A stretch of 32,000 nucleotides of DNA from Candidatus Hermodarchaeota archaeon (lineage in GTDB: Archaea; Asgardarchaeota; Heimdallarchaeia; Hodarchaeales; Hodarchaeaceae): the NCBI GenBank assembly GCA_048886185.1, contig JBHLKY010000007.1, positions 195,383-227,382 of the forward strand, in the 5' to 3' direction. Positions 1-21,061 of this stretch are shown piece by piece; position 1 is the stretch's first letter, and each line of letters starts with the position of its first letter. A model generated the notes under the pieces. It did not search any database, was not told the origin of the DNA, and saw nothing but the letters and a program-made list of their open reading frames with translations. The position numbers and the translations under genes were made by a program.

Positions 1-402
1 CTTTTACCATTATATGTTAATAGAATGGAGTATATAGTTCATGGTAACGAAGTGATTGTTAAAAAAGGATTAATCAATAAAACAGTCAAGTATTGTCCTT
101 ATCGAACGGTTACTAATATCTCAACAACTGCTGGACCTTTCGATCGTCTTTTTGGTATAGGGTGTGTTAATATTCAAACTGCAGGTAAGGGTGGGGCAAC
201 TGGTCCTGAAGAAAAGTTGGAAGGCTTACCACTATATCATGAAATTCGTGATTATATTCTAAGACAGCTTCGAATCTATTATACAGCTATCTCGGGAGAA
301 TTAATACCTACCGCCAAAGAAACAGATTTATTAACAATACAACGAGAGATAATCAACGAATTGAGAGAGATAAAACAATTATTGAAAAATGAAAAGAATT
401 AG
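1..402 (+). CDS. bPH_2 (YdbS/DUF304-like) bacterial PH-domain membrane protein, paralog 1, 5'-truncated by the window edge
   Basis: Frame is open from base 1 (LLPLYVNRMEY...), so the ATG at 25 is probably internal. PH core Y..T..EVIVKKGLINK...PYRTVTNIS...GPFDRLFGIG.V.I.TAG matches paralogs 2 and 3. C-terminal amphipathic ELREIKQLL helix. Confidence 0.85.
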   Translation, partial: LLPLYVNRMEYIVHGNEVIVKKGLINKTVKYCPYRTVTNISTTAGPFDRLFGIGCVNIQTAGKGGATGPEEKLEGLPLYHEIRDYILRQLRIYYTAISGELIPTAKETDLLTIQREIINELREIKQLLKNEKN

Positions 403-410
403 GTGGTTAA

Positions 411-1088
411 ATGGTGAAAGAAAATACAATTCAAAATGGAAAACCATTCTATCCTGTTTCTGCATTCAGGAACAAATTATTCTTGTATATTATAACAACA
501 TTCGTTGCTATAACAGGCGTAATTATAACTTTTGGAGGAATAATTACATTTTTTGTGAGTCTAGATAATGATTCATCTGAGGATAACTTTGGAAAATGGC
601 TAGTAGAATACAGTCAAGATCTCATATTATTGTATTTAATCATCAGTATGATGTTGATGCTTCTTACTGCTATCTTAGTGGTATATTACGTACGAAATAT
701 AGAATATATTATTGATGACACTGAAGTTATAGTCAAAAAAGGAATCATCAATAAAACTATAACACATGTCCCGTTCAGAACGATTACCAATGTTAGCTCT
801 CGCTACGGACTCTATGATCGAGTTTTTGGAATAGGTACCTGTGAAATAGAAACCGCAGGAAAGTCAGGACAACAAACTGGTCCTGAAGAGAAAATTGAAG
901 GGATAGTTAATTTTAAGGAAGTAAGGGACGTAATTCTGAAGGAACTTCGTAGGTTTCGGGGACAATATGCAACTACGACTGAATTTGAACATCCAGATTA
1001 CCCAGAGGAGTCAATCGGAGATATTGTCCTTCAGAAGGAGATTCTCGACGAACTACGTCATATAAAAGAGATTCTCTCTAAAAGATAA
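411..1088 (+). CDS. bPH_2 (YdbS-like) membrane protein, paralog 2
   Basis: Two N-terminal TM helices, then PH core VIVKKGIINKT..HVPFRTITNVSSRYGLYDRVFGIGTCEIETAG. AGGTGG RBS-like motif about 400-405. C-terminal ELRHIKEIL helix. Confidence 0.9.
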   Translation: MVKENTIQNGKPFYPVSAFRNKLFLYIITTFVAITGVIITFGGIITFFVSLDNDSSEDNFGKWLVEYSQDLILLYLIISMMLMLLTAILVVYYVRNIEYIIDDTEVIVKKGIINKTITHVPFRTITNVSSRYGLYDRVFGIGTCEIETAGKSGQQTGPEEKIEGIVNFKEVRDVILKELRRFRGQYATTTEFEHPDYPEESIGDIVLQKEILDELRHIKEILSKR

Positions 1089-1099
1089 TTGATTGTTAG

Positions 1100-1777
1100 G
1101 TGATGAAAAATATGTATTCTGAAGAAATTGTAAAAGGAAAACCTTTTTATCCGCTTTCTGCTTTACGAAACAAGTTTATTCTTTATATATTGACCGCTTT
1201 CGTAATAATCACAGCAGTTATTGTGGGATTTGCTTTATTCATAGGATTTATGGGTGGATTTGACAGTGATCCCTCTGGGGATGATTTTGGACGTTGGATT
1301 TCAGCTTCTTGGCCAACAATTTTACTAGTTTATCTTCTTATATGGTTTATATTGATTCCAATTCTTATTGTCTTGGTAGATTATTACGTAAGAACAATGG
1401 AATTTACGATTCTTGACAATGAGGTTATCGTAAAGAAAGGAGTGATCAATAAAGAGGTAAAACACATCCCATTCCGCACTATTACAAATGTTAGCTCTCG
1501 CTACGGGCTCTATGATCGAATCTTCGGTATTGGTACCTGTGAAATAGAAACTGCTGGGAAATCAGGACAACAAATGGGTCCTGAAGCCAAGATTGAAGGA
1601 ATAAATAATTTTGTGGAAATCAGGGATCTCATTTTAAAAATACTTCGCCAATTTCGTGGTCAATATGCTACAACAACAGAACTAGAACCATCTTCTACAT
1701 TACCACCCTTACAAAAAGGATTTCATGGAGAAATGCTAGCTGAATTGCGGGAAATAAAGAGGATCCTTACTGATTAG
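1100..1777 (+). CDS. bPH_2 (YdbS-like) membrane protein, paralog 3
   Basis: Same architecture and length (225 aa) as 411..1088. 43/47 identical residues across the PH core (hand-aligned). AGGTG RBS-like motif at the start. Confidence 0.9.
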   Translation: MMKNMYSEEIVKGKPFYPLSALRNKFILYILTAFVIITAVIVGFALFIGFMGGFDSDPSGDDFGRWISASWPTILLVYLLIWFILIPILIVLVDYYVRTMEFTILDNEVIVKKGVINKEVKHIPFRTITNVSSRYGLYDRIFGIGTCEIETAGKSGQQMGPEAKIEGINNFVEIRDLILKILRQFRGQYATTTELEPSSTLPPLQKGFHGEMLAELREIKRILTD

Positions 1778-1945
1778 TTGGACTCTCCACTACATTCCGC
1801 ATTAATTCTCTTTAAAAATTAAAGATTTAAAACCTGAATAGAAAACCAAGAGTACTCAAATTCACCTTTATGATATTGTTATATGGTAGATTAACGAAAA
1901 AGGTTGATTCTCTCAAATAATGATAGTATAATTGGAGTGTAACAT

Positions 1946-2758
1946 TTGAACATCATTGAAATTGAAAATTTAACTAAAAAATTTAAAAATACCATAGCAC
2001 TTGATAATGTCTCTTTGACAATACAAAAAGGAGAGGTTTTTGGATTATTAGGGCCAAATGGAGCTGGTAAGACAACACTAATTCGGTTATTAATTGGTCT
2101 GATAAAACCAACCTCTGGTAATGCCCGTATTAAATACAATGGATTAGGGCCCTTTGACATTAGGAAAGACATAATGGATATCAGGAAAAAAGCAAGCTTA
2201 CTACCTCAGGAGGCTGAAGTATATGAAAATTTGACTGCAAAAGAGAATATTATGTATTACGGTCAAATTTACGGCAATGTACCTAATGGAGAAGTCCGAA
2301 GACGTACTGAAGAATTAATTGACATGATTGGTCTTCGGGGTCGAGAGAACGATGTCACAAAGGAATTTTCTGGAGGGATGAAAAGAAAAGTTCTGGTAGC
2401 TCGCGCTTTAGTGATGGATCCAGTTTTAATTTTTCTAGATGAACCTACTACTGGTATTGATATATTGGGGGCTCGTACGGTACGCAACCTAATTAAAAGA
2501 CTGGCTAAAGAACTGCACAAGACAGTTATCTTAACAACACATGATTTAACGGAAGTAGAAGAGCTCTGTGATCGTGTGGGTATTTTAGTTAAGGGAAGAC
2601 TTGCTGCAATAGGAACACCTGATGAACTTGAGGAACAATTTACAAAAGCTCACTTAGAGGATGTATTTATCGGATTAACAACAGGAGAAGGTGTTTTAGA
2701 GGAAGCTTTGGATGAGCCAAAAAGGGGCTTCTTTTCTAGTATTTTAAGGAGAAAGTGA
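1946..2758 (+). CDS. ABC-2 exporter ATP-binding subunit (DrrA/NatA-like)
   Basis: Walker A GPNGAGKTT, signature FSGGM, Walker B FLDEPT, H-loop TTH. TTG start preceded by GGAGTG. Confidence 0.95.
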   Translation: MNIIEIENLTKKFKNTIALDNVSLTIQKGEVFGLLGPNGAGKTTLIRLLIGLIKPTSGNARIKYNGLGPFDIRKDIMDIRKKASLLPQEAEVYENLTAKENIMYYGQIYGNVPNGEVRRRTEELIDMIGLRGRENDVTKEFSGGMKRKVLVARALVMDPVLIFLDEPTTGIDILGARTVRNLIKRLAKELHKTVILTTHDLTEVEELCDRVGILVKGRLAAIGTPDELEEQFTKAHLEDVFIGLTTGEGVLEEALDEPKRGFFSSILRRK

Positions 2759-4098
2759 AAAATATGAGTACAGTCAAGCAAATAATGGCTTTAGTTAAAC
2801 AGGAGTTACAAAGTGCACGACGTACACGATATGTGATCTTTACGTTTGTCTTAATGCCACTTTTTATGTGGGGTATGCAGGGTGGAGTACAGATGCTCCT
2901 AGGTTTTGTAATGGGCTCCTCCCAAGAAGGAGTGACTATTTATTTTGTCAATTATGATGAAGGAAATGCAACTTTTGATCTCAATCTTGGAGATCAATTT
3001 CTTGATAGACTTCTGAATTCTACCCAAACTAATACTTCTATTTTGTACAAGGCTAAAATCAATCATACAAAGTATGCTAATATGGACTATAATGATTTAT
3101 ACCAGAAAATCCACAGTTCTGAAACAGCTAGTGATTATACTCCATGTATTATAATTCCTAAAAACTTCACACAGGTATATTTGGACTTTAATATTACAGA
3201 GGGTGATATTCCTCCTGTTGTAGAGTTATACTCTCTTCCAGGTGGAATCCTTGGATCTTCTATGCTTGAAGCTGGTGTATATTCAATAGTTTCTCAATTT
3301 AATATTGTTGAATATCATAAACTTGTAGGTTTTGCCCCTTCGCCTGTTCTTTTCGCAAAAGAAGAGGGGGCTGCTTCTATTTATGGTATTGGATTTGTTG
3401 GAATGATATCAATTATGGTAGCTGTTATTGCGCCAGCTCCATTCGTGTCGACATCTTTTGCTGGAGAAAGAGAAAAGAAGACAATGGAATCACTTCTTGC
3501 TTTGCCTATTTCTCGTTTTAATATACTTTTCTCAAAGCTTCTTGCTGGAATGGCCCTTATTGCAGTTTTTTCATTAATGAATATTCTTGGATTGTTTTTA
3601 TTTTCAGCAATGATTGATGTTGCTTCGGGTTCTATTGGTTCAGAGGAATATTCCTCCATCTTTGCAGTCGAACCATCACCAATTCTGTTGGTTCTAGTCG
3701 TTTCTATGATGTTTCTTTCGGCGTTTGTTGCCATCGGGATAGGTATATCCTTGGCAAGTTTAACTAAGGATGTACGTTCCGCGGAATCTATGTACAACAT
3801 GTTCATGATGCTTCCTGCTATAGGGGTCGGTATGATTGCTATGTTTGGGGGAATCCCAGAACGAACTTTTGGTGGTGCTGGGATCTTTCTATACATCATT
3901 CCTTGGGCTCACTCAATTGCTATTTTGTCTAAGGGATTATATCCTCAAACTTATGCATCTAGTGCCTTAACACGTAATTTACCCGGAGGTGGAATTCCTA
4001 TGGATCTAGTTATCCACTTTGGATTCTTGGTCATAGTGATTCTAGTCTGCTTATTCATTGCGTCTAAAGTATTTGAGCGTGAGGGGATTCTAACTTAA
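2755..4098 (+). CDS. ABC-2 exporter permease with large extracytoplasmic domain (NatB-like)
   Basis: One N-terminal TM, soluble loop, then a multi-TM block with FAGEREKKTMESLLALPISR..ILFSKLLA (ABC-2 motif). 4-bp overlap with the ATPase. Confidence 0.92.
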   Translation: MKNMSTVKQIMALVKQELQSARRTRYVIFTFVLMPLFMWGMQGGVQMLLGFVMGSSQEGVTIYFVNYDEGNATFDLNLGDQFLDRLLNSTQTNTSILYKAKINHTKYANMDYNDLYQKIHSSETASDYTPCIIIPKNFTQVYLDFNITEGDIPPVVELYSLPGGILGSSMLEAGVYSIVSQFNIVEYHKLVGFAPSPVLFAKEEGAASIYGIGFVGMISIMVAVIAPAPFVSTSFAGEREKKTMESLLALPISRFNILFSKLLAGMALIAVFSLMNILGLFLFSAMIDVASGSIGSEEYSSIFAVEPSPILLVLVVSMMFLSAFVAIGIGISLASLTKDVRSAESMYNMFMMLPAIGVGMIAMFGGIPERTFGGAGIFLYIIPWAHSIAILSKGLYPQTYASSALTRNLPGGGIPMDLVIHFGFLVIVILVCLFIASKVFEREGILT

Positions 4099-4133: not shown

Positions 4134-4901
4134 TTATTTTTTCTTCAAATAATTGTAAACAGCATCGAAAGCGTCGATCCATGCTGAAATTCCTTTTTGT
4201 CTAAGTAAAACGGTTAAACCATACTCAGTTATGCCTCCTGGAGTAGCTAGGGTGTCAAGTATTACATCTAGATCTTTGTTTGGTTCATTTAATGCCATGT
4301 TCACAGTACCTCGTACTGTTTCAAGTACTAAGTTTCTGGCTATAGATTGAGGTACACCTTTGAGAGCTACCCAAGAAATTGTTTCATTCAATAAAACAAA
4401 CATCCAAGCATAAAATGCTCCAATCACGCTTGCATGAGTAAATTCTGATTCATTTTGGAGTATATGAACTGTACCTAAAAGACTAAATATCTCTCGAGCA
4501 TATACATTGTCTGGAAAAAGTAATGTTGGACTCTGATTGATCGCAGCACAAGATATAGGTAATGCTCGAATAACTTTAGCTGGTATTGTTACGGATTCTA
4601 ACTTCTTAAGTGATAATCCGATTGCTACAGAGATTACTGTTTGATTAGTTCGAAATTTGAGGTTCTTTGCAACTTTTATGGTATCATCAGGACGAGTAGT
4701 TAAAATAACTATATCAGAACTATTAACAACTGATTCATTATTCTTTGCTACTTTTACTCCGAATTGGGTCGCTAATTTTGAGGAAATTTCTCGATTCCGA
4801 GGTGAGAGAATAATTTTGATGTCTTTTGATGCTTTCTTCAGACCTTCTACTAAATAGCTAGCTAGATGTCCTACCCCAATGATCCCAACCTTTTCAATCA
4901 T
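4134..4901 (-). CDS. divergent pyrroline-5-carboxylate reductase (ProC)-family NAD(P)-dependent oxidoreductase
   Basis: Rossmann VGIIGVGHLA and C-terminal LATPGGIT (ProC xSPGGTT). The usual RxMPNTP is replaced by RALPISC and SGSGPAY by IGAFYAW. ATGA overlap with the upstream mutase. Confidence 0.85.
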   Translation of the reverse strand: MIEKVGIIGVGHLASYLVEGLKKASKDIKIILSPRNREISSKLATQFGVKVAKNNESVVNSSDIVILTTRPDDTIKVAKNLKFRTNQTVISVAIGLSLKKLESVTIPAKVIRALPISCAAINQSPTLLFPDNVYAREIFSLLGTVHILQNESEFTHASVIGAFYAWMFVLLNETISWVALKGVPQSIARNLVLETVRGTVNMALNEPNKDLDVILDTLATPGGITEYGLTVLLRQKGISAWIDAFDAVYNYLKKK

Positions 4902-6667
4902 TTGTTAACTTCCTGAGCACATTCAATTAATATTTTTAACATATCCTCTATATGATGACAAACATGTACTCCTAAATCCTTCAATTGCTGTGTAACATCA
5001 ATTGGAATGCTTGTTTTATCATCATCAATAATTTGGTTTAGCTTCCCTCCTATAAAAATTGGGATATCTAATTCAATCAACGCCATCTCCTTGCATAGTG
5101 CCTGTGAATAGTCAAGGGCAATTCCGTTGTATGTACTGACGGCAATGAAGTCTGAATCAGCTTCTTTGGCTCGCTTGGCAAGAATATTGGGATCAACACT
5201 GACCCCAACGTCAATTATAGGAATTTTTAATCGTTTTAGGACTTCTACAAGAAGAATTTTTCCATATTCATGAACATCAGTACAAGCGACACAGATCTTA
5301 AATTGTGCCTCGTTTAATATAGCTTTGTCAGATGGATTTATGAGAGCGAGTAATTTTTTACTCTTCTCCTCCAATTCAGCTATTGTAGAAACTTTTACAA
5401 CGGGTTTTCGGTAACGCAACATGTGTTCATGGGGCTCTCCAGGACCAAACAATTCTTCTAACCGTTTGGCTCCAATTCGACGGATGGACAGAAGTAATTC
5501 GAAAGGGTCATTAATATCAATACCAGCTTTGCTCAATCCATCTAAAACTCGTTTTTTAAATTCTTTACCTGCCTTAACTAGTTGGTTTGTTATCCTATCC
5601 ACCCTTTTCATATCAAATAAGTCTTGAAATCCATCCGATCGGTGTATTAATCGGTTTGCAAAAAGATGTGCGTCGATAATTTCTTTAATTTCAGGGATCC
5701 TTTTTGCTTCTGTCACAGGAATAGGATTAATTCCATGGCCAGTTGGGAGTTTAAGTTGAGCAATGATATCGACTAATAAATAACTTGCAAGATTAGCATA
5801 ATTTTCAACTTCATTTTCAACAAAGATGGTTGTATTGCCATATATCATGCTTCCAGGTGTTTTTGTAACCTTATAAAGTGCCCTTTGGAACGCTAGCCGC
5901 TTTTTAGGATCTGAAAATGTGTGACCATAACAATGAGAAACCTGACCTCCAATAAGGTCCTCAATGATATGCCGTTCAATTAATACTGCCCCAATACTAC
6001 AAGCCATATCACAAAAGAGAGCAGCAAATCCATCATCCAGATTTGAATGAATCATAACTTCAACTGGTTGAGCTGCACATAGAGCTAAAGCCTTAATTGT
6101 CTCTACTGTTGTACTCACGTCATCATCCCACTTTGGCATACGAAAGGTGAAATATTGGCCAATATTCCCAATACTAGTTGATCCTGCTTTCAGAGCAGCA
6201 ATTGTATTCTCAACTGCTGCTGGTGTTCCAATAACAAAGTCTCCAAAATGAGGTGCAACTGGTGCAGAGTGAGTTAAATCAATGAAGCTTTCAGGTTTGC
6301 TTAGAATTAATCCTGTTCCTCGAGGCATGTTTTCTCGGAGATTTAATGGGTACCCCATACTCCAATCCAAACAAATTCCATAACGATCTATTCTATAACC
6401 AGCAGTAGAAATATGATTATAGATTTTCGTGTACGCTAATTTAGTCTTTGTAGGACTACGATATCCTATCTGTCCGTGAAGCATGATTGACCTTTCAGAT
6501 GTTTGCTGGCGCTTATAATCACTCTCTGATTGAACATCATATTTAGTTAAGAAAGGGCAAGAACCAACTGTTACTGACTGACTTAGTTGTTCTGCTTCCC
6601 CTAAAATATCATTTATATCAGGTAGCTCCTTTTCTGGAAGGATTTGAGTTCGTTCAAGATTTCTCAT
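4898..6667 (-). CDS. adenosylcobalamin-dependent mutase, 2-methyleneglutarate mutase (Mgm)-like, with fused TIM barrel and B12-binding domain
   Basis: C-terminal base-off B12 motif DVHEYG ... IAVSTYNG ... IFIGGKLN. Barrel segments NTIAALKAG, HSNLDDGF, PVTEAKRIP and AGIDINDPFELL align with my recollection of Eubacterium barkeri Mgm. Length 589 aa fits a single-chain mutase. Confidence 0.8.
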   Translation of the reverse strand: MRNLERTQILPEKELPDINDILGEAEQLSQSVTVGSCPFLTKYDVQSESDYKRQQTSERSIMLHGQIGYRSPTKTKLAYTKIYNHISTAGYRIDRYGICLDWSMGYPLNLRENMPRGTGLILSKPESFIDLTHSAPVAPHFGDFVIGTPAAVENTIAALKAGSTSIGNIGQYFTFRMPKWDDDVSTTVETIKALALCAAQPVEVMIHSNLDDGFAALFCDMACSIGAVLIERHIIEDLIGGQVSHCYGHTFSDPKKRLAFQRALYKVTKTPGSMIYGNTTIFVENEVENYANLASYLLVDIIAQLKLPTGHGINPIPVTEAKRIPEIKEIIDAHLFANRLIHRSDGFQDLFDMKRVDRITNQLVKAGKEFKKRVLDGLSKAGIDINDPFELLLSIRRIGAKRLEELFGPGEPHEHMLRYRKPVVKVSTIAELEEKSKKLLALINPSDKAILNEAQFKICVACTDVHEYGKILLVEVLKRLKIPIIDVGVSVDPNILAKRAKEADSDFIAVSTYNGIALDYSQALCKEMALIELDIPIFIGGKLNQIIDDDKTSIPIDVTQQLKDLGVHVCHHIEDMLKILIECAQEVNK

Positions 6668-6929
6668 ATTGTATTACCTTTATCACGATAGTTCGATTTT
6701 GAATTTTAGTGTTGTAGTAGTTTATTATCTTTTTATATTGAGGAATTTGATATATTAGAATAAGAGATAATTCTTATCATTTTTAACTTTCAAAACATTC
6801 TCTTGAAATTGACTTTTATTCTACAGGTTATGTTTGGTACAGATTGTAATCCTTCTGAGCTGTTCATGAACAACCATATCTCCCTTTATTAAGCTCATTA
6901 CTAATATCGCAAAGTAGAGTTTAATTACT

Positions 6930-8375
6930 TTGATCTATGAAAAGAAAATGAAATCACTACTTATTCTCCTGGTGAAAATCTTATTGAGAAAACTCCAATA
7001 TAAATCCATTATGTTCTTTGTTACATTTTTTGCTTTTTTATTATTTAATGTCCATTTAGGGAATTTAAAGACATCTTCACAAGCTGTTATTTCAGAGGCT
7101 TCCTCTGAACTTTACTTAATTCAATGGAACACAATCCTTATCATGAGAGATCTGCAAACTCCTCGTTCTCTTATCCAAACAAATGATGGAAATTATTTAG
7201 TTATTGGAAACAGGTACCCCACTCCGTCTGAATCATGTTGTCCTCTTCCTCAAAGTGATATATTCCTTATGAAAATAGCATCAAATGGGATGATAAAAGA
7301 AATCAACATCTATGGAGATGATAATATTGCTATTGATTCAGGTAACATCGTCATCGAAACAGAAAATGGATGGGTTATCGCTGGGCATACAAATGCACCT
7401 CCAGCAGTTGGAATGGATTTTATGCTTTTGAAAATTGATCTTGAAGGTAAACAAATGTGGAAACGTACTTATAACAGAAGTACGGAAGGTGAGATTCGTT
7501 CATTTATACGAACTGCGGATCAAGGTTTTGCTTTGTTGGGTTTATCCTCACCTAGGACTCCAATCCCTACTGATGAAACCATGTGGCTGCTTAAGACCGA
7601 TAATGATGGTGTAGTTCAATGGAATCGAACTTATGGTCAGAATTTTACTGAGTATACTAGTATGATTCAATCTGAGGATGGTGGATTTGTTTTTACAAGC
7701 TATGATGGATATCTAATGAAAACAGATATGAGTGGAGAGATTCAATGGCAGAAAGAGATTGGGGGAACCTTATTCTCTTTAACCAGTGTTGAAGATGGAG
7801 GTTTTGTCCTATTTGGTTCTAAATTTAATCATCCTTGGCTTATAAAAACAGATTCTTTAGGAATTATGGAATGGAATAAAACTCTCCCATTTAGTATTGA
7901 AGGTGAGTATGTATTTAGTAAAAATAGAACTAAAATATTGAATATTATTTCTTCTTCTGACAGTGGTTTTATATTAACAGGTACCAGTGTTCCTGTTCCT
8001 GATGGAGGGATTATAAATAATTCAAATGTATGGATAGCAAAAACTGATAGCAATGGAATCATAGAATGGAGTCATGTATTTGAAATAGAGTCTTTTGCTA
8101 GTATCCAAGCTGTGATTCAGAATAATGAAGGCGATATCGTATTGACAGGTGAAAATAAGCGCTATCCTTGGATTATAAAGATTGACCTTCCCCCATTTGC
8201 GCCTATTAATCCTTCTGAAACAGTTAATATTGCACCAACGATCTCTCTAGATATTGATCATCCAACAACCACTAGTACAAATCTGAAATCTGCAACAATC
8301 TCATTCCCAGAGATCTATCTTATTCTTTTAGTTGTTAGTATCATTGGGTTTTGGAAAAAGAACCACAAGGTTTAA
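6930..8375 (+). CDS. cell-surface beta-propeller-like repeat protein with Thr-rich linker and C-terminal membrane anchor
   Basis: About 7 repeats of type (W/F)LLKTDxxGxxQWxRT(Y/F)G. N-terminal hydrophobic signal-like stretch, PTTTST linker, C-terminal TM plus WKKNHK tail. The true start may be ATG 6947 or later. Confidence 0.8.
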   Translation: MIYEKKMKSLLILLVKILLRKLQYKSIMFFVTFFAFLLFNVHLGNLKTSSQAVISEASSELYLIQWNTILIMRDLQTPRSLIQTNDGNYLVIGNRYPTPSESCCPLPQSDIFLMKIASNGMIKEINIYGDDNIAIDSGNIVIETENGWVIAGHTNAPPAVGMDFMLLKIDLEGKQMWKRTYNRSTEGEIRSFIRTADQGFALLGLSSPRTPIPTDETMWLLKTDNDGVVQWNRTYGQNFTEYTSMIQSEDGGFVFTSYDGYLMKTDMSGEIQWQKEIGGTLFSLTSVEDGGFVLFGSKFNHPWLIKTDSLGIMEWNKTLPFSIEGEYVFSKNRTKILNIISSSDSGFILTGTSVPVPDGGIINNSNVWIAKTDSNGIIEWSHVFEIESFASIQAVIQNNEGDIVLTGENKRYPWIIKIDLPPFAPINPSETVNIAPTISLDIDHPTTTSTNLKSATISFPEIYLILLVVSIIGFWKKNHKV

Positions 8376-9055: not shown

Positions 9056-10405
9056 CTATACCAAATTTTGTTTAGTAATTTTTTCGATTAAATCGATGAA
9101 GAATTGGCTTTCAATTCCTAGGTCTCCTAGTTCTTGGATGAGTAATCTATATGTTGGATGATTTGGCTTGAAAAGACCATTCAATCTTTGAAAAAGCTTC
9201 TTCGAGATAAATAACGACAAATCAGAGTCTATTAAAGCATTATGCAGGTTTTTAATTGCTAGAGTAACCCCATTAATTAGTTGAACCTGATTTGTTCTTT
9301 TCATAATGTATGTGACCTTTTTACTTCTTGTAATAGCCCATCCTGGATATTTAGGGTTTCTAAAGGGAGATTTTTGTCGTTCGGAGTCCTCTAAATTTGA
9401 CTTGGACAATTTATAAAAGCTTGGTTGAAACAAACCAAAGTCAATTTCCTTTAATGTCTTTTTGTGTGCATAAGATACAATTAGATAATTTCCACAATGA
9501 CGATCCCAAGAGCCACAAACGGAGTCAAACACCAACATTCTACCAAGATTTTCGGCATCATCTCTGATCAATTCTTCAATGTCATTTCTTGTTACTGCGC
9601 AAAAACTTATACATGCAGGAGTAAGTGGTTCAATCAGAAGATCCGAATTTTTAGCAAAGGATTGAAAAATAGATGAGCGATTGTTAAAAAGTAACAAAGC
9701 ATGTCGAGGAACATTTAATCCAATTATTTTTCCGATCTGTATTATTTGCAACTCTAGATTAGGATTATCTATATATTCTTTCTTTGGTAATGCTTTTACA
9801 AATAATCCTTGGTTCTTAAGAGATGAAAATAAGAAATAAGTCGGATGAAAACTATCCTTATTTTCTCTGAAAAACAGTAAACGAGAATGCTTCCTCGAAG
9901 GGATTAAGGATGAGACTTTTTGAAAGAAAAAGATGATACTTTGATAATAACTTAGTGATTTTTGACGCATACTTAAAACAAGGTAAGAGCCAATATATCC
10001 ATGAATTAAATTATATTTTTTAAAAATAGTCATGTCGTGTGCAGAAATATGATTCATATCAAGAAATAATGCAAAAAAGGAAGAATAACTGCTCCATTGA
10101 ATAGCAAAATGTAGATTTTCCTTGGTTTTCTTCCCTGAAACTTCATTGAGAGTCAAAAATAATTTTTTTCGAAAATATCTTTTATTGGTTAAAGGATTAC
10201 TGTTTTCAATTCTCATGCTTGTTGATATCTTTTGGGGGATGGAGATATTTTTCAACTTCATAAAAATGCCTTTAGCTTTGATGTTTGATAGAAAACCCTG
10301 AGTATTTTTTTCAAACTCTGTTTCCCTCATTAAATTTTTCATTTGATTTTTTTCTATAGAACGATCCATAGGGCACAATGGTTTTTGTTTCACCCCAATA
10401 TCCAA
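9056..10405 (-). CDS. PI3K/PI4K/HipA-superfamily atypical kinase domain protein with unknown N-terminal region
   Basis: LFVK (beta3 Lys), NLELQIIQIGKIIGLNVP (alphaC Glu plus GLxVP), catalytic FDSVCGSWDRHCGNYLI (9488-9505 for DRHCGN) and IDFG (9434-9445). Start codon uncertain. Confidence 0.75.
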   Translation of the reverse strand: MDIGVKQKPLCPMDRSIEKNQMKNLMRETEFEKNTQGFLSNIKAKGIFMKLKNISIPQKISTSMRIENSNPLTNKRYFRKKLFLTLNEVSGKKTKENLHFAIQWSSYSSFFALFLDMNHISAHDMTIFKKYNLIHGYIGSYLVLSMRQKSLSYYQSIIFFFQKVSSLIPSRKHSRLLFFRENKDSFHPTYFLFSSLKNQGLFVKALPKKEYIDNPNLELQIIQIGKIIGLNVPRHALLLFNNRSSIFQSFAKNSDLLIEPLTPACISFCAVTRNDIEELIRDDAENLGRMLVFDSVCGSWDRHCGNYLIVSYAHKKTLKEIDFGLFQPSFYKLSKSNLEDSERQKSPFRNPKYPGWAITRSKKVTYIMKRTNQVQLINGVTLAIKNLHNALIDSDLSLFISKKLFQRLNGLFKPNHPTYRLLIQELGDLGIESQFFIDLIEKITKQNLV

Positions 10406-13747: not shown

Positions 13748-14206
13748 CTACCGCGAATGAAGAGTAACAACTGAATATTAAATGTAACTGAAGTAAGATA
13801 CAATAGGGAGCCATCTTAACTTCCACGTGGGAGTATACCATCATAAGGAAAGGTTGGATAAATGGTTATCCCATATTTTCTTCTTAAGATGAAATATAAT
13901 GGTGCAATTAATTTTATTTTTGTTTCATGTATTCATTAATAAAAATAACTTCATATCTCCCCGAATACATTTCAGTGACTATTTTACATCCTTTATATTA
14001 AAAAACAAAGCTTCATAACTGCTAGTGTCCTTATTCAGTTGGCCCTAAATTACTTAAGCTAAGAAGAAATAATAAATTAATAAATTATTGAATAGAGTTA
14101 CATTTCTTAAGAAGAATCCCAGACAATTATAGGGAATTTGAATCAAACAAAAAAAATATGTTCATTTTCTTTTATTAATCTAGATTGAAATCAGGTGTTG
14201 ATATAT

Positions 14207-15241
14207 TTGAGGTATTTGAAACTTCCCAACCAGAATGTCTATACTTTTCTTGAAAAATTAAGATCCCACGGTGAATTTTTCGGGCCAATTAAAATCTCTG
14301 AAAAATTCTATGATTTTAGAGAAGTTGAAGATGTTAGTTCAGTCGAATTACACTACAATCGAACAATCACACCTCCACGAAAATACTTTCATCCACCACA
14401 AGAAAAAATGTTCTTCTTTAATAGAGAGAATGTTGAATTGCAAGATATTTTTCAACCTACAACTAAGAAAATAGTTTTGTTTGGTCTTCATCACTGTGAT
14501 ATTGTTGGATTACGGATAATAGACACTAGGTTCATTGATGATCAACCTGATCCATATTATCTTCAACGTCGAAAAAATGGAATTATTATTGGATTATCCT
14601 GCTTACCTGATGAATACTGTTTCTGTAATGTACGAAGAGTGGATTTTGTAGATATTGGATTCGATCTTTTTCTCCACGAAGTTCCAGACGGCTTTCTTTT
14701 AAGAGTCGGGTCTGTACGTGGACATAAAATTGTTGATCCAATTGAAGAGTTGTTTCAAAAAGTTTCAAAAAGTGACGTCGTGAATTTAACACTTTTTGAG
14801 CAGAAAAGGGAATCTCTTTTCACTTTAAAGGGCAATTGGGACAATCTAAGATACTTGCTCGAATTGAAGGCAGACCATTCCTTATGGTCCAGAGAAAGTG
14901 AGTCCTGTGTTGGATGTGGAAATTGCACCCTTGTATGCCCAACCTGTCGCTGTTACGATGTAAAAGACATTCCAAGTTTAGATGGAAAAACAGGTGAGAG
15001 AATAAGATTTTGGGATAGTTGTCAATATAGATCACACGGATTAGTAGCAGGGAACCATAATTTTCGGGAGACAAAAATAGATCGTTTTGAAAATCGTTAT
15101 ATGTGTAAAAACGCGTATTGTAAGGAACTCACAACTGCCTATTGTGTGGGGTGTGGTCGTTGCACATTTTTTTGTCCCACGGGGATTAACTATAAGGAGA
15201 ATTTAGTTGAAATTAGATCGTCTATTGAGGATGTACATTAA
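14207..15241 (+). CDS. hydB: group 3b [NiFe] sulfhydrogenase beta subunit (Fe-S)
   Basis: Two 4Fe-4S motifs CVGCGNCTLVCP and CVGCGRCTFFCP, and RFWDSCQ. TTG at 14207, 9 nt after AGGTG, gives MRYLKLP, matching the N-terminus of Thermococcales SH-I beta as recalled. Confidence 0.93.
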   Translation: MRYLKLPNQNVYTFLEKLRSHGEFFGPIKISEKFYDFREVEDVSSVELHYNRTITPPRKYFHPPQEKMFFFNRENVELQDIFQPTTKKIVLFGLHHCDIVGLRIIDTRFIDDQPDPYYLQRRKNGIIIGLSCLPDEYCFCNVRRVDFVDIGFDLFLHEVPDGFLLRVGSVRGHKIVDPIEELFQKVSKSDVVNLTLFEQKRESLFTLKGNWDNLRYLLELKADHSLWSRESESCVGCGNCTLVCPTCRCYDVKDIPSLDGKTGERIRFWDSCQYRSHGLVAGNHNFRETKIDRFENRYMCKNAYCKELTTAYCVGCGRCTFFCPTGINYKENLVEIRSSIEDVH

Positions 15242-15243
15242 AG

Positions 15244-16104
15244 ATGACTCAAATCTTAAAAAATCCATACCAAACCTACAAGTCACGGTTATTACGTGTC
15301 TATAATCTTACAGAACATGAAAAACTCTTTCTCTTTAGATTCGAGGATGAAAAAATTGTACTAGATTTTCATTTTTTACCTGGTCAGTTTGTTGAATTTT
15401 CCTTACCAGGATTAGGTGAAGTTCCGATTTCAATCTGTTCGTCACCAATGAGAGTTGGATTCTTTGAGTTGTGCATTCGTAAAACTGGTAGAGTCACTGA
15501 AAAAATACACGAATTAAAGCCAGGAAATCTAATTGGTATTCGTGGACCCTATGGAAATGGATTCCCAATGGAACAATTCTGGGATCGAGACTTATTACTT
15601 GTGGCTGCTGGTCTTGGCATGGCTCCTCTGCGGTCAATTTTCCTTTATGCGATTGATAATAGGTGGAAATTCGGTAATATCACAATTATTAACTCCGCAA
15701 AACTAGGGAAAGACTTACTTTTTAAGAAAGAACTTGTGGCAATGAGGGACATTGCGGAAGCTGAACAAATACAGATAATTCAAACAACAACCAGGGATGA
15801 TTCTTGGACTGGTTTAAAAGGTCGTGCGTCTGAACATTTGGAAGGAGTGAATATTAATCCTAAAATATGTTCAGTGGCATTATGTGGGCCACCAAAAATG
15901 TACAAATCAATGTTTGAAAAAATGATTGAACTTGGATATAATCCTAGGCGTATTTTTGTGACTCTTGAACGAAAGATGAAGTGTGGGACAGGGAAATGCG
16001 GACATTGTAACATCGGTAATGCTACATCATGGAAATATATTTGCAAAAATGGCCCAGTGTTTGATTATTATGACATAATTTCAACCCCGGGGTTGTTAAC
16101 ATGA
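15244..16104 (+). CDS. hydG: group 3b sulfhydrogenase gamma subunit (FAD/NAD(P)-binding, 2Fe-2S)
   Basis: PGQF, GEVPISICS, RGPYGNGF, AAGLGMAPLRS, CGPPKMY and MKCGTGKCGHC...CKNGPVF. Confidence 0.95.
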   Translation: MTQILKNPYQTYKSRLLRVYNLTEHEKLFLFRFEDEKIVLDFHFLPGQFVEFSLPGLGEVPISICSSPMRVGFFELCIRKTGRVTEKIHELKPGNLIGIRGPYGNGFPMEQFWDRDLLLVAAGLGMAPLRSIFLYAIDNRWKFGNITIINSAKLGKDLLFKKELVAMRDIAEAEQIQIIQTTTRDDSWTGLKGRASEHLEGVNINPKICSVALCGPPKMYKSMFEKMIELGYNPRRIFVTLERKMKCGTGKCGHCNIGNATSWKYICKNGPVFDYYDIISTPGLLT

Positions 16105-16919
16105 AGATTTCTCAAGATACACAAGTAAAACTGAAGTTTGGGATTTATTCTCTTACTTCATGTTATGGTTGTCAATTAAAGATCGCGACACTTTCACGAA
16201 TACTTGATGTTGTTAATTCAGTTGATGTTAGATGTTTCTATATGTTGAACTCTGATAGTTCTATCAATGAATCGGTGGATATTGCGGTCGTTGAGGGATC
16301 AGTAAGTACAGAAAAAGATCTGGTAGAATTAAAGGAAATTAGAAGTAATACAACAAGATTGATAGCAGTTGGCGCTTGTGCAATAAATGGGGGAGTTCAA
16401 AGTTGGGTGCATAATGAAAAATCTTATGCAGATTTATATAACTGTGTCTATGGGGAAGCTCGGATCAAATATCAAGGATTAAAAGCCCATCCTATCGATA
16501 ACTATGTAAAAGTGGATTTCTATTTACCAGGATGCCCTCCAGAAGAAGGAGAAATTATGTATTACCTTAGTACTTTTCTTTTCGGTACATGGCCAGAAAC
16601 AAAGGATTATCCAGTATGCCATGAATGTCGTGTCGCTGAGAATCCCTGTATATTGATAGAAAGTGGAGAACCCTGCCTTGGGTCTATTACAGTGGCGGGT
16701 TGCGGAGCTAGGTGTATTAAATACAATATCCCTTGTGTAGGATGCCGTGGGCCAGTTCCTCATGATAATGCGTGGTTTGATTCTTTAGCACGAACCTTCA
16801 AAGAAAAAGGATATTCTGAAGAATATATTTACGATCGAATAGCGATTTTTAGTTCACACGAACCAAATTTTAAAGGAAGGCTGGCCAATTTTTCCAAAAA
16901 AGGTGTAAAATATGACTGA
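16101..16919 (+). CDS. hydD: group 3b sulfhydrogenase delta (small) subunit
   Basis: LTSCYGCQL, VEGSVST, GACAINGG, LPGCPP and C-terminal Cys cluster CHEC...PCLG...CGARC...PCVGCRG. Confidence 0.95.
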   Translation: MKISQDTQVKLKFGIYSLTSCYGCQLKIATLSRILDVVNSVDVRCFYMLNSDSSINESVDIAVVEGSVSTEKDLVELKEIRSNTTRLIAVGACAINGGVQSWVHNEKSYADLYNCVYGEARIKYQGLKAHPIDNYVKVDFYLPGCPPEEGEIMYYLSTFLFGTWPETKDYPVCHECRVAENPCILIESGEPCLGSITVAGCGARCIKYNIPCVGCRGPVPHDNAWFDSLARTFKEKGYSEEYIYDRIAIFSSHEPNFKGRLANFSKKGVKYD

Positions 16920-18225
16920 TCAGATAAAGATTACGAAACCCCTCAAGACCGATCATATTGCACGCATTGAAGGAAAAGCAGGTCTCGAGATCAAAGTTAA
17001 AAACAATAAAATCCAAGATATCAAGGTAAATGTAGTTGAAGGTCCACGTTTTTTTGAAGCAATAACAATAGGTAAACCACTTGAAGAAGCTGTCTCTGTT
17101 TATCCAAGAATTTGTTCTTTTTGTTCTGCAGCTCATAAAATCACAGCAATAGAAGCTGCAGAAGCTGCTTTGGGACTAGAGGCAACAGATCAAACAAAAA
17201 AGCTTCGAGAATTGATGTATATTGGGGATCACATTGAGTCTCATACTTTACACCTATATTTTCTATCCTTGCCGGATTTTTTAAATTATCCCTCTGCTAT
17301 GGATATGGCAAAAGATTATCCAGCAATAATATCCGATGCACTTATCTTAAAGGATATAGGTGCTGATATCCAGAAGAATATTGGGTCTCGTTATATACAT
17401 CAAGAAAATGCTTTAATAGGGGGTTTCGGTAAACTTCCATCAAGAGACTCATTATTAAAATTAGTCCAAACACTTGAGTCATTCAAAAAATTACCTGAAA
17501 ATGCATTAAAAGCTTTTTCTCGCCATTCTCTCTGGTCAGAAGTGGCACGTGAAAGAGTTCATCTTGCATTAAAACCTTATACCGACTATGGGATTTTTGG
17601 AGATACAATAACGATTAATAATGGAAAATCATTTCCAATAAATCGTTACAAACATAATCTCATAGAAAAGGTTGAAAATCATTCATTTGCAAAACATTAT
17701 TTTTACAATGATCATTCGTTCATGACTGGTGCCCTGTCAAGAATAACACTATTTGGAGACAAGATGTTTGGTCGTGCGAAAGAGCTATTTAACTCTCATA
17801 AAGAATTTCTTGATCCTGCAAATCCGCTTTCTAATAACTACGCTCAAGCTATTGAATTAATATATTTTCTTGAAAAAGCAAATATGCTTGCTGAAGATCT
17901 GGCGTCAACATTAAACGAGAATGAACCTCGTATAAAACCTAGTTTTAAAAATATTAAGAACAACTCAACAGGGATTTCGGTTACAGAGGCACCAAGAGGT
18001 CTATTAATATACACATTAGGAGTTGATAAAAAAGGAATAATTACTACAGCTGATATTATTACTCCAACAGCAATGTTTTTAGCAATTCTTGAAGAAGATG
18101 TTAAGCAAATGGCCCATGCATTAAACCAAAAAGAAAATACAGATCAAAAAATAGAAAGTATTAGTCATAAACTTGAAATAATTGTCAGATCATATGATCC
18201 TTGTATTTCTTGTAGTGTCCATTAA
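16912..18225 (+). CDS. hydA: group 3b [NiFe] hydrogenase alpha (large) subunit, ending at the L2 His
   Basis: ARIEG, L1 RICSFCSAAH, EAPRGLL, L2 RSYDPCISCSVH followed immediately by TAA. Confidence 0.96.
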   Translation: MTDQIKITKPLKTDHIARIEGKAGLEIKVKNNKIQDIKVNVVEGPRFFEAITIGKPLEEAVSVYPRICSFCSAAHKITAIEAAEAALGLEATDQTKKLRELMYIGDHIESHTLHLYFLSLPDFLNYPSAMDMAKDYPAIISDALILKDIGADIQKNIGSRYIHQENALIGGFGKLPSRDSLLKLVQTLESFKKLPENALKAFSRHSLWSEVARERVHLALKPYTDYGIFGDTITINNGKSFPINRYKHNLIEKVENHSFAKHYFYNDHSFMTGALSRITLFGDKMFGRAKELFNSHKEFLDPANPLSNNYAQAIELIYFLEKANMLAEDLASTLNENEPRIKPSFKNIKNNSTGISVTEAPRGLLIYTLGVDKKGIITTADIITPTAMFLAILEEDVKQMAHALNQKENTDQKIESISHKLEIIVRSYDPCISCSVH

Positions 18226-19069: not shown

Positions 19070-21061
19070 GTGGATGGGATTGAAATGAAGCAAAAAAAAA
19101 TAATGTCACACTTATTTATAATCCTATATCTAGCAATATGCTTTTTACTATATCCAATTAATATTACCCCAATTCAAGCAGCTTATTGTACAGTAACCAT
19201 TGATAGTCTTTATGTTTCACAACTTCCGTCTGGAATCATTTCTCCTAATCAATCAGTGACAATAAATGTCTCAGGTGCCGTTAGTATAGATGGATTGTTT
19301 ATTGGATCAGGTGTTGGAGCAATTTTGATTTATCGTATTAATAATGGATTTGATCGCGATATAGATATGGGTTATGAGTGGGAAATTCAAATTGAACATT
19401 ACAATTATTCATTTTCTGCAGATATTGGACCATTTAATTTAGGTGATACCATAGATTACCGAGTTGGAGTCGGAGTAGGTGCTATAGATATAGCGGGAGA
19501 AGCTGTTGAAGAATTACGTTTAAGTAGTGTTTATAATTTCACAGTTGATGATGTTCCTCCTACAATCACAGATGAAATCCGATTTCCTTCCACTCCTGAC
19601 AACGTAAAACCTGTTACTATAAGAGCTACAGTTATGGATAATCAATCTGGTGTTAATAATGTGATTCTTCATTACTGGGCAAATAATAACTGGAATTCTA
19701 TTGCCATGATTGCATCAGGTAGTAGGTATACTGGTGTTATTCCAACACAAGCTTATAATACTAATGTAGACTATTACATCCAAGCTACAGACAATGTTGG
19801 GATTGTACAAACATGTGATACTTTTAGTTACTCAATCAGTGATGGTTTGGGCCCGAAAATTTCTGCTGTTACTCAAAATCCAGTAAATGCTGATAATAGT
19901 CAACCTACTATCATCAGTGCCACTGTAACGGATGATGAAACTGGAGTTGCTTCTGTTACTCTCTATTATCAACTTAATAATGGTACATGGCAACCAACCT
20001 CGATGAGTGGTTCGGATATCTTCACAGGGACGATCCCTAACCAAACTTACAAAACTCAAGTTCGTTATTATATCGAAGCAATTGATAATAGTAATAATAC
20101 GGGATTATATTTTAATCCTTTATTGAATGGTAATTTTGAATCTGGTTCTTTTACACCTTGGATGGGTGGAGCAAGTGTAACAACTGATAGTTATCATATA
20201 CATAGTGGAGCTTATGGGTTAAGCTGTGACATATATGACAGCTACTCTCTTCAATATTTACCTACCTATATACAACAGGATGTTTTTATCCCAGTTGACC
20301 TGCTTGAGGAATTTACATTTTATATGAAATCAAATGAAAGTCAAGTAAACGTTATTATTACTTATGATGATGACACACGTAACAACATCACCTTTGATTC
20401 AAGCAGTTCTTGGGTTCAACGTGTTTTTTCTCAAGAAAATCTTACATCTGGTAAAGTAATAATTAATGTCAAATTTGAACGACTCGGATCCCCTATTAAT
20501 TCTACAACTGCAATCGATGATATTTTAATTTCTTCGTCATTTATTAACTATGTTGTCAATGATGGTTTATCACCTGTAATCACTGATATTATTCACAATC
20601 CTGATAACCCAGAAGACAATCAAAATGTTACAATTTCTGCAATAGTCACCGATGCTGACAGTAGTGTTGATACAGTTATTTTGTATTACCAAGTTAGTGG
20701 TATAAACACCTGGCAAACTGTTATCATGAGTGAATCTGACAATACCTATACTGGAGTTGTGCCAGGTCAATCATATAATATGGTTGTATATTACTATATT
20801 GAAGCTAATGATATGGCAGGGAATTCCATTCAATCTGGTATTTCTAGTTTCACCGTTGGTGATGACATTGTTCACACAACTGATTCAGAAACTTATACAG
20901 TAGAAACCACCATTACACCTTCAACAGAACCTACAACTATTACTACATCAACAGCGGAAGGAACAACCACAACCACAACGGAAGAGACTCCTGCGTGGAC
21001 TTTCGTCATTGTCTTCTTTTCTTTCCCAATTCTATTCTTCTTCAGAAAGAAGGGAAAATAA
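19070..21061 (+). CDS. cell-surface protein: signal peptide, Ig-like repeats, CBM-like jelly-roll, Thr-rich linker and C-terminal anchor
   Basis: Three ~90-aa repeats (D..P.I......P......V.I.A.V.D..SGV..V.L.Y....W....M......YTG.IP.......V.YYI.A.D). LLNGNFESGSFTPW CBM4/9-type start. TTTTTTEETPAW plus TM plus RKKGK. ATG 19085 is a possible start. Confidence 0.85.
   Translation: MDGIEMKQKKIMSHLFIILYLAICFLLYPINITPIQAAYCTVTIDSLYVSQLPSGIISPNQSVTINVSGAVSIDGLFIGSGVGAILIYRINNGFDRDIDMGYEWEIQIEHYNYSFSADIGPFNLGDTIDYRVGVGVGAIDIAGEAVEELRLSSVYNFTVDDVPPTITDEIRFPSTPDNVKPVTIRATVMDNQSGVNNVILHYWANNNWNSIAMIASGSRYTGVIPTQAYNTNVDYYIQATDNVGIVQTCDTFSYSISDGLGPKISAVTQNPVNADNSQPTIISATVTDDETGVASVTLYYQLNNGTWQPTSMSGSDIFTGTIPNQTYKTQVRYYIEAIDNSNNTGLYFNPLLNGNFESGSFTPWMGGASVTTDSYHIHSGAYGLSCDIYDSYSLQYLPTYIQQDVFIPVDLLEEFTFYMKSNESQVNVIITYDDDTRNNITFDSSSSWVQRVFSQENLTSGKVIINVKFERLGSPINSTTAIDDILISSSFINYVVNDGLSPVITDIIHNPDNPEDNQNVTISAIVTDADSSVDTVILYYQVSGINTWQTVIMSESDNTYTGVVPGQSYNMVVYYYIEANDMAGNSIQSGISSFTVGDDIVHTTDSETYTVETTITPSTEPTTITTSTAEGTTTTTTEETPAWTFVIVFFSFPILFFFRKKGK

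Follow-up and report, generated by a model that had tools for sequence, protein, structure and literature searches.

We analysed a 32,000-nucleotide stretch (hereafter the window) of contig JBHLKY010000007.1, from the assembly GCA_048886185.1 of Candidatus Hermodarchaeota archaeon, and focus here on two overlapping minus-strand genes that encode a single-chain cobalamin enzyme of 589 residues (P0001, here called the mutase) and a ProC-like NAD(P)-dependent reductase of 255 residues (P0002). With their stop codons included, the mutase gene occupies positions 4898–6667 and the reductase gene positions 4134–4901. The two share four nucleotides, an ATGA at 4898–4901, where the mutase frame ends in ...AAC AAA TGA and the ATG of the reductase overlaps that stop (AAATGATTG), an arrangement that presumably couples their translation. 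The two reading frames, the length of the mutase, the overlap and the B12 motif DVHEYG (residues 464–469 of the mutase) had all been listed in an earlier note made from the letters of this DNA, and each was found where it had been placed. Upstream, an AT-rich stretch at 6668–6929 separates the mutase gene from a divergent beta-propeller gene and is the presumed promoter region, in a window with a G+C content of about 33%. Because each protein has hundreds of full-length homologues (50–73% identity for the mutase, 31–69% for the reductase), neither gene is a chance feature. The nearest relatives of both carry the labels Promethearchaeota, Hodarchaeota or Heimdallarchaeota. No RNA data set is among the listed holders of the stretch, whose matches are four sediment-metagenome DNA runs from one study, possibly its source.

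A structure of the mutase predicted with AlphaFold2 (predicted local distance difference test 88.6, predicted template modelling score 0.88) consists of a (beta/alpha)8 barrel (residues ~61–345; minus strand, as for all features of the pair, 5633–6487), a helical linker (residues ~346–454; 5306–5632) and a Rossmann-type cobalamin-binding domain (residues ~455–589; 4901–5305) that includes S511 and G540-G541. The DVHEYG segment (5261–5278) is a DxHxxG motif, the loop that provides the lower ligand in His-on cobalamin enzymes, and its D464 and H466 are invariant throughout the superfamily alignment; G469 completes the motif. In a structure search, the best match was glutamate mutase GlmE, with values of 26.7 and 26.6 over 359–373 residues, a root-mean-square deviation of 3.8–3.9 and 8–9% identity. 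This alignment, which is known here by its first and last aligned residues, pairs residues 14–472 of the model with 1–467 of GlmE, a span that contains the linker. Lysine 5,6-aminomutase (22–24), ornithine 4,5-aminomutase (about 20) and methylmalonyl-CoA mutase (17–18) gave lower values, and the C-terminal domain was matched by GlmS at 15.5 and by methionine synthase entries at about 14–15. The protein is therefore predicted to combine, in a single chain, a barrel like that of GlmE with a helical linker and a His-on cobalamin domain that resembles GlmS.

By sequence, the barrel stands apart. Of the whole chain, Pfam and NCBIfam identify the C-terminal cobalamin-binding domain alone (PF02310, with 30.5 bits when the protein was scanned and 33.9 bits when the genome was), and the first ~450 residues match nothing in either collection. 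Across 43 family members, Pfam searches at E≤10 found no match to the mutase-barrel families PF06368, PF09043 and PF01642 or to any cap domain. Nor was a solved mutase barrel reached by phmmer with the protein, by a profile of 28 barrels (no PDB chain at E≤10) or by a profile of the strand-8 segment. The best sequence matches of the cobalamin domain are to methionine synthase, and homologues are labelled in databases as ‘cobalamin-dependent protein’ or ‘methylmalonyl-CoA mutase cobalamin-binding subunit’; the latter label is wrong for these proteins. Judged by the model and these searches, the mutase is built, and presumably works, like glutamate mutase, yet lies outside every described barrel family. 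Of the single-chain B12 mutase that the earlier note had likened to 2-methyleneglutarate mutase (Mgm), the adenosylcobalamin (AdoCbl)-type architecture stands in the predicted fold and the DxHxxG motif, while the closest solved fold is that of GlmE and the barrel has no sequence match to any described family.

The same genome encodes another cobalamin protein of 574 residues (P0241; G000:C3, L090:1375–3099, minus strand), in which the B12-binding domain is N-terminal and carries CVHVAG, without the Asp of DxHxxG. Its C-terminal region has a 16.5-bit match to the GlmE family, the only GlmE match found in this genome, and its domain order is reversed relative to the mutase studied here.

Much of the conservation within the barrel lies where an active site would be expected. 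About 30 polar residues do not vary within the near family: H64, Q66, R70, D94, R95, C99, D101, W102, R111, H140, D143, E153, N154, N168, Q171, H207, S208, D211, D212, D220, H245, C246, Y247, H249, Y276, N278, T279, H311, N314 and E320. Active sites of TIM barrels lie where the strands end on their C-terminal side. The predicted model places roughly two-thirds of these residues at such an end of one of the eight barrel strands or no more than a few positions away from it, with R111, E153, N154, D220 and E320 farther from any strand end. E320 belongs to the family segment P-V-T-E-A-x-R-I-P, which may resemble the part of GlmE around its ribose-binding Glu, a likeness given no weight here. This pocket set is all but identical across 73 sequences drawn from Asgard archaea, Chloroflexota, Acidobacteriota, Gemmatimonadota, Alpha- and Gammaproteobacteria and one Bacteroidota metagenome-assembled genome. 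In the wider superfamily (22–48% identity), only a core is fixed (G68, G90, G162, G167, D212, D220, G248, A263, N289, G310, E320, E404, D464, H466 and the GG motif), and the His/Cys/Arg set is restricted to the near clade. We infer that the fixed core comprises cofactor and scaffold residues and that the clade-specific set may provide ligands to the substrate, or to a metal.

Distant relatives of the mutase point to the type of chemistry. A profile search over 1.84 billion representatives retrieved 209 relatives at E≤1e-30, a number that rises to 469 at E≤1e-10. Directly downstream of one distant full-length member (P0277) lies a gene of the GlmL family (PF13941), which scores 304.9 bits with TIGR01319 (cut-off 204); an amino-acid permease gene and a class-III aminotransferase gene come after it. 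Another distant member (P0285) is fused to a MutL domain. Proteins of the GlmL/MutL type assist glutamate mutase and the ornithine aminomutase system as accessory factors. Since distant members of the family adjoin, or are fused to, this type of reactivase, AdoCbl radical chemistry is suggested for the mutase. The host genome encodes a CobA-type adenosyltransferase.

The second protein has the domain architecture of ProC, with matches to F420_oxidored (PF03807, 54.8 bits) and P5CR_dimer (PF14748, 51 bits), and its best PDB matches are Δ1-pyrroline-5-carboxylate (P5C) reductases (E 4e-20). Against the ProC model TIGR00112, however, it scores 117 bits (116.5 in the genome scan) and does not reach the cut-off of 196.75. 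A canonical proC lies elsewhere in the genome (G000:C2:200778–201554, 272 bits) and carries the segments RIMPNMP, GTGPAY and SPGGTT; on account of its presence we reject the reading of the paired reductase as the housekeeping ProC.

Alignments to solved P5C reductases and to the organism’s own ProC place the differences between the two at specific motifs. The dinucleotide-binding loop GIIGVGHLA (residues 6–14; 4860–4886) is seen in the translation, with G6, G9 and G11 invariant. In place of R-x-MPNTP, residues 112–126 (4524–4568) read RALPISCAAINQSPT, in which RALPISCAA stands for the canonical motif and R112, P115, S124, P125 and T126 are conserved. Residues 157–166 (4404–4433), ASVIGAFYAW, replace SGSGPAY, with IGAFYAW in the position of GSGPAY and with A157, A162, Y164 and W166 conserved. 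The TPGGIT loop (residues 220–225; 4227–4244) is retained. Across 37 aligned partners, the subfamily shares VRAMPISCAAINxSPT, ASVIxAFYGW, LATPGGIT and W241, and a loop of the canonical enzyme is missing. This pattern would fit a change of specificity under selection rather than decay. In P5C reductases, the carboxylate of the substrate is held by the S/T-P-G-G-x-T loop, and because this loop is retained, a cyclic imino acid would remain the most likely substrate class of the reductase. The alignments bear out the earlier description of a protein that keeps TPGGIT and has lost MPNTP and SGSGPAY; with the score below the cut-off, the conserved replacement motifs and the separate canonical proC, they also agree with its reading as a substrate-shifted ProC paralogue.

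The subfamily shares with ProC (TIGR00112; PDB 2AHR, 2RCY and PYCR1) the Rossmann and P5CR dimerisation domains, the GxGxxG/A loop and the S/T-P-G-G-x-T loop; it differs in the scores given above, in having PISCAAIN-SPT and AFYGW for MPNTP and GSGPAY and in lacking the loop insertion. There is precedent for such specialisation. P5CR homologues in methylproline formation (the nostopeptolide and griselimycin pathways) reduce substituted cyclic imines; as is probable in the present case, a ProC fold is dedicated there to an imine other than P5C, sometimes beside an iron/2-oxoglutarate (Fe/2OG) hydroxylase. Those pathways combine a hydroxylase with a dehydrogenase in natural-product clusters, whereas here the partner is a B12 enzyme in a free-standing two-gene unit with catabolic-looking contexts.

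Linkage of the two genes extends well beyond the window. We collected 80 mutase loci from species-representative genomes, 76 of which have room downstream for a second gene. A ProC-like gene lies directly downstream on the same strand in 51 of these 76 loci and within 8 kb in five more. Among 50 adjacent pairs, 30 have a spacing of −4 and another eight one of −8, with start codons inferred approximately, and the identities of the two proteins to the window copies co-vary (Spearman 0.86, among relatives that are not independent). Of 201 sampled genomes of the phylum, four encode the mutase, the same four encode the ProC-like subfamily, always adjacent, and the remaining 197 have neither. The four carriers belong to one genus, in which six of the nine other genomes lack both genes. 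Where bacterial genomes carry a solitary mutase, a ProC-like paralogue is found elsewhere in four of five, scoring 216–265 bits with the subfamily profile against 67–108 bits for the lower-scoring ProC-type matches there. These patterns of co-occurrence and adjacency suggest that mutase and reductase have been gained, lost and kept as a unit, and they answer in the affirmative whether the pair is conserved across genomes, as the earlier note had asked. Pocket residues are alike in the 73 sequences with or without an adjacent reductase gene; for this identity, and for the paralogues elsewhere in four of five such genomes, we reject the reading that the loci without a ProC-like gene encode a different enzyme. 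A complex prediction for mutase and reductase, both supplied as alignments, returned a score of 0.00, which is no answer and has no bearing either way.

Gene neighbourhoods outside the Asgard archaea provide hints of a substrate. About 10 of the 80 loci have, immediately upstream and on the mutase strand, a gene for a PhyH-family Fe/2OG dioxygenase that matches no specific equivalog; in several, this gene touches or overlaps the mutase reading frame as called (calls in high-GC loci are crude). Other recurrent bacterial neighbours are amidases, LysR or GntR regulators and Old Yellow Enzyme-type proteins with flavin reductases, and genes for an HpaB-type oxygenase and a flavin mononucleotide (FMN) reductase lie beside other family members. 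At an Acidiferrobacterales-type locus, the pair is preceded by genes for an HpaB-type oxygenase, an agmatinase-family ureohydrolase (452.7 bits, above the cut-off), RidA, PhyH, a DUF1028 protein and an ArgE-type deacylase (552.6 bits, above the cut-off), and a Δ1-pyrroline-2-carboxylate/Δ1-piperideine-2-carboxylate (Pyr2C/Pip2C) reductase (331.4 bits, above the cut-off) is encoded nearby. In Pseudemcibacter aquimaris, a LysR gene, the pair, an M17 peptidase gene and two saccharopine-dehydrogenase-type genes follow one another, with an SSF transporter gene nearby.

Aminotransferases recur as well. In two alphaproteobacterial genomes where the mutase has no adjacent reductase (L109:6770–8092 and L111:6863–8206), the ProC-like paralogue comes directly after a gene for a HemL/GntE-like class-III aminotransferase that scores about 393–397 bits against NF000818, whose cut-off of 398 it narrowly misses. 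The arrangement suggests that mutase, aminotransferase and reductase are associated with one another as a trio. A HemL-like aminotransferase gene also adjoins distant mutase homologues in an Anaerovorax-type clade of Clostridia (L091–L093), where two paralogous copies lie 6 kb apart with a sigma-54 activator gene in between, each followed by a reading frame of 33–34 residues. One copy is accompanied by genes for a hydantoinase-A-like ATPase, a HemL-like aminotransferase and an iron-containing alcohol dehydrogenase, and the other by genes for an aldehyde dehydrogenase, an SSF transporter, an FMN reductase and a HemL-like aminotransferase. Varied as they are, the bacterial neighbours share a theme and together point, at the level of compound class rather than of one substrate, to basic or cyclic amino-acid (Arg/Orn/Lys/Pro-type) and imine metabolism. 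At the Asgard loci, nothing beyond the pair is functionally suggestive, and the beta-propeller, ABC-2 transporter and bPH_2 flanks are syntenic among close relatives.

Because a mutase of a family with no known reaction and a specialised relative of ProC are gained and lost together, the pair probably performs undescribed B12 chemistry on an amino-acid-derived ring compound. Our preferred reading, which we hold at a probability of a little over one half (roughly 0.55), is that a small substrate with a carboxylate and a nitrogen undergoes an AdoCbl-dependent radical 1,2-rearrangement in the barrel and that the ProC paralogue, in a coupled step, interconverts a Δ1-cyclic imino acid and its cyclic amine with NAD(P)(H). 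Beyond the fold and the motifs, we infer the following steps. The large protein of this two-enzyme module would be a His-on, AdoCbl-dependent radical isomerase in which a GlmE-like barrel and a GlmS-like cobalamin domain are fused. Cleavage of the Co–C bond of AdoCbl would yield a 5'-deoxyadenosyl radical. The invariant pocket, rich in His, Arg, Asp and Cys, would position the substrate at the top of the barrel, and the radical could abstract a hydrogen atom from it. The 1,2-rearrangement would come next, and the product, either directly or after spontaneous cyclisation, would be a Δ1-cyclic imino acid. The co-translated ProC paralogue would then use NAD(P)H to reduce the imine or, running backwards, supply the imine from a cyclic amino acid. 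Such a module would belong to Orn/Lys/Pro-type amino-acid metabolism. As the default reading, an acyclic amino or diamino acid would be rearranged and its product would become the cyclic imine; direct rearrangement of a cyclic imine or amino-aldehyde ranks second, and an eliminase-type reaction on a hydroxylated amino acid third.

Several observations weigh against this preferred reading. No GlmL/MutL gene was found in the organism’s own 96%-complete genome or at the near-clade loci, and no PduO-type adenosyltransferase was found in that genome. The reductase gene is not nearby in about a quarter of the loci, and one genome with a solitary mutase (G001) has as its only ProC-type match a low-scoring one, at 107.9 bits. 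Since the barrel has no sequence link to characterised enzymes, the catalytic assignment draws on the predicted fold and on the neighbours of distant relatives. The proposed substrate class, similarly, is drawn from heterogeneous bacterial contexts because neighbourhoods beyond the pair are not conserved. Finally, a homologue with 64% identity (P0064), on a metagenome contig (locus L006), is divergent from a gene of the MttB methyltransferase family.

That last locus has further features of its own: GroES and GroEL genes come next to the mutase homologue, which has no downstream reductase, and genes for a short-chain dehydrogenase/reductase, a GntR regulator, a glutamate-dehydrogenase-type protein and an Asp/Glu racemase lie nearby.

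The alternative that survives best is that the cyclic imine, or its open amino-aldehyde form, is itself the substrate of the mutase. The C=N or C=O carbon would act as the sp2-hybridised migrating group, for example in the conversion of Δ1-piperideine carboxylate to methyl-Δ1-pyrroline carboxylate, with the ProC paralogue interconverting imine and cyclic amine on one side. Carbon-skeleton mutases require a pi-system on the migrating group, and the retained imino-acid carboxylate loop of the reductase, the imine-processing neighbours RidA and Pyr2C/Pip2C reductase and the saccharopine-pathway-type genes beside the pair in Pseudemcibacter would all suit such a substrate, as would the HemL-like aminotransferases, enzymes that make amino-aldehydes, encoded beside unlinked ProC-like genes and distant mutase homologues. 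The migration of an imine is, however, without precedent among B12 enzymes, methylprolines have no known sink or source in these organisms, and the contexts are equally compatible with other orders of the steps. We therefore regard this alternative as rather unlikely. The earlier note had proposed essentially this ring expansion or contraction, which would suit the imine-handling and Orn/Lys/Pro contexts. A new AdoCbl rearrangement with a Lys-, Orn- or Pro-derived cyclic imine or amino-aldehyde as the radical substrate, such as the contraction or expansion of piperideine- or methylpyrroline-carboxylate rings with the ProC paralogue fixing or supplying the imine, seems to us a shade less likely again.

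Lower still we place an eliminase-type reaction analogous to that of ethanolamine ammonia-lyase. The neighbouring PhyH dioxygenase would make a hydroxylated basic amino acid (e.g. 5-hydroxylysine, a vicinal amino-alcohol), which the B12 enzyme would turn into a keto-amino acid that cyclises to a ketimine, to be reduced by the ProC paralogue. The upstream PhyH genes and the HpaB-type oxygenase and FMN reductase genes described above speak for it. Known B12 eliminases, however, are base-on and differ in subunit make-up, whereas the mutase here has a His-on DxHxxG domain, and PhyH is missing from the Asgard loci and most others.

It is improbable that the mutase is an orthologue of a known free-acid enzyme, converting 2-methyleneglutarate or glutamate next to an incidental reductase. 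Its overall architecture is shared with these enzymes and its closest fold is one of them: like glutamate mutase (GlmE/GlmS or MutE/MutS; PDB 1CB7, 1I9C and 6H9E), it has a GlmE-like barrel and a His-on cobalamin domain with DxHxxG and GG. Yet one fused chain replaces two subunits, the pocket set is rich in His and Cys, PF06368 is matched by none of the 43 members, a ProC-like protein takes the place of methylaspartase as the partner, and no GlmL gene was found in the 96%-complete genome, as noted above. Mgm of Eubacterium barkeri, reportedly described by Beatrix and colleagues in 1994 (as cited in PMC2667541), works in nicotinate fermentation. It is a single chain of about 600 residues, a barrel with a C-terminal B12 domain, and thus similar in size to the mutase. 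The contrast lies in the surroundings. The methylitaconate isomerase/PrpF family (PF04303) was not found anywhere in the 96%-complete genome, and none of the annotated reading frames of the window belongs to a nicotinate-pathway family, in keeping with the earlier note’s statement that such genes are missing from the window. Neither methylaspartase nor nicotinate-pathway genes, Mii/PrpF included, occur in the homologous contexts seen, and the mutase family is frequent among aerobic marine Proteobacteria. A ProC paralogue so closely linked would have no place in those pathways. None of the database names seen for homologues refers to Mgm, and the papers that mention Mgm give no sequence relations; one survey states that Mgm was not detected in the genomes it covered (Zhang et al., 2009; PMC2667541).

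Two further alternatives appear equally remote. A corrinoid methyltransferase, with a methyl donor or acceptor barrel fused to a methyl-cobalamin carrier domain, would fit the best matches of the cobalamin domain to methionine synthase and the MttB-family neighbour of one homologue; the methyl-corrinoid-type helical cap domain (B12-binding_2, PF02607) was found in none of the 43 members at E≤10. A pyridoxal phosphate (PLP)-dependent aminomutase with a diamino acid as its substrate, like ornithine 4,5-aminomutase (OraSE) or lysine 5,6-aminomutase (KamDE), is disfavoured by the lack of any PF09043 or OAM_dimer match, by a partner of the P5CR fold in place of the Ord/Kdd-type NAD(P) dehydrogenases encoded downstream in those systems, and by the residue 11 positions after the Co-ligating His (position 477), presumably the site of the PLP-binding Lys in both PLP-dependent B12 aminomutases, which is L, M, F or I in 73 of 73 sequences.

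With respect to distribution, a pattern scan places the mutase family in at least 474 species genomes, most of them bacterial. In a maximum-likelihood tree of the 73 sequences, the eight Asgard entries form one clade (support 100/95) within a larger clade (100/99) whose other members are Chloroflexota, Acidobacteriota, Gemmatimonadota and one Emcibacteraceae entry. This nested position and the patchy presence in the phylum would fit a transfer between bacteria and one Asgard lineage; because the tree is midpoint-rooted only, it gives no direction. The earlier note’s emphasis on new mutase chemistry in an archaeon was thus overstated, the family being mainly bacterial, with nested Asgard copies in 4 of 201 phylum genomes, all of one genus.

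Other genes of the window were annotated alongside the pair. Beyond the presumed promoter region, positions 6930–8375 (plus strand) encode the divergent 481-residue beta-propeller protein, which has weak SBBP and Beta-prop_ACSF4 matches and is also found upstream of the pair in a Heimdall-labelled relative. Positions 1–4098 (plus strand) hold tandem bPH_2 membrane-protein genes (two complete, plus a partial reading frame at the window start), followed by genes for an ABC ATPase and an ABC-2 permease. This block also adjoins the mutase pair in related Asgard genomes (L002, L008–L012 and L026), which is synteny among close relatives and not a functional link. At 14195–18225 (plus strand), possibly extending to 18502, a four-gene operon encodes a Fer4_22 iron-sulfur protein, an FAD/NAD-binding protein with a DHODB-type iron-sulfur domain and the small (Oxidored_q6) and large (NiFeSe_Hases) subunits of a NiFe-hydrogenase, and looks like a cytoplasmic group-3 (sulfhydrogenase-like) hydrogenase. 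The reading frames at 9056–10405 (minus strand, 449 residues) and 19070–21061 (plus strand, 663 residues) have no significant Pfam match; the former, the only one of the two scanned against NCBIfam, has no match there either.

To our knowledge, only a handful of AdoCbl isomerase reactions are known, each of them a model for radical enzymology. Our literature searches found no described pair of a B12 mutase and a P5CR and no link between cobalamin and methylproline, and no characterised function covers the pair, in line with the undescribed pathway that had been proposed for it. There is a real chance that the two enzymes perform new chemistry. Here is a large and strongly conserved family with the full architecture of an AdoCbl isomerase that has neither a name nor a Pfam barrel model, with an obligate-looking reductase partner that makes cyclic imino acids the likely field of its chemistry. 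The question is open to direct testing in cultured carriers, such as Pseudemcibacter aquimaris, Tistlia consotensis USBA 355 and Pacificispira spongiicola KN72. Knowing the reaction would close a gap in B12-dependent metabolism and account for some of the B12 that marine and sediment microbes require, and it would let annotators assign a function to entries now called ‘cobalamin-dependent protein’ or mislabelled. Should the rearrangement of a cyclic imine prove true, it would constitute a new class of B12 reaction and a new branch of basic-amino-acid metabolism in marine bacteria and some Asgard archaea.

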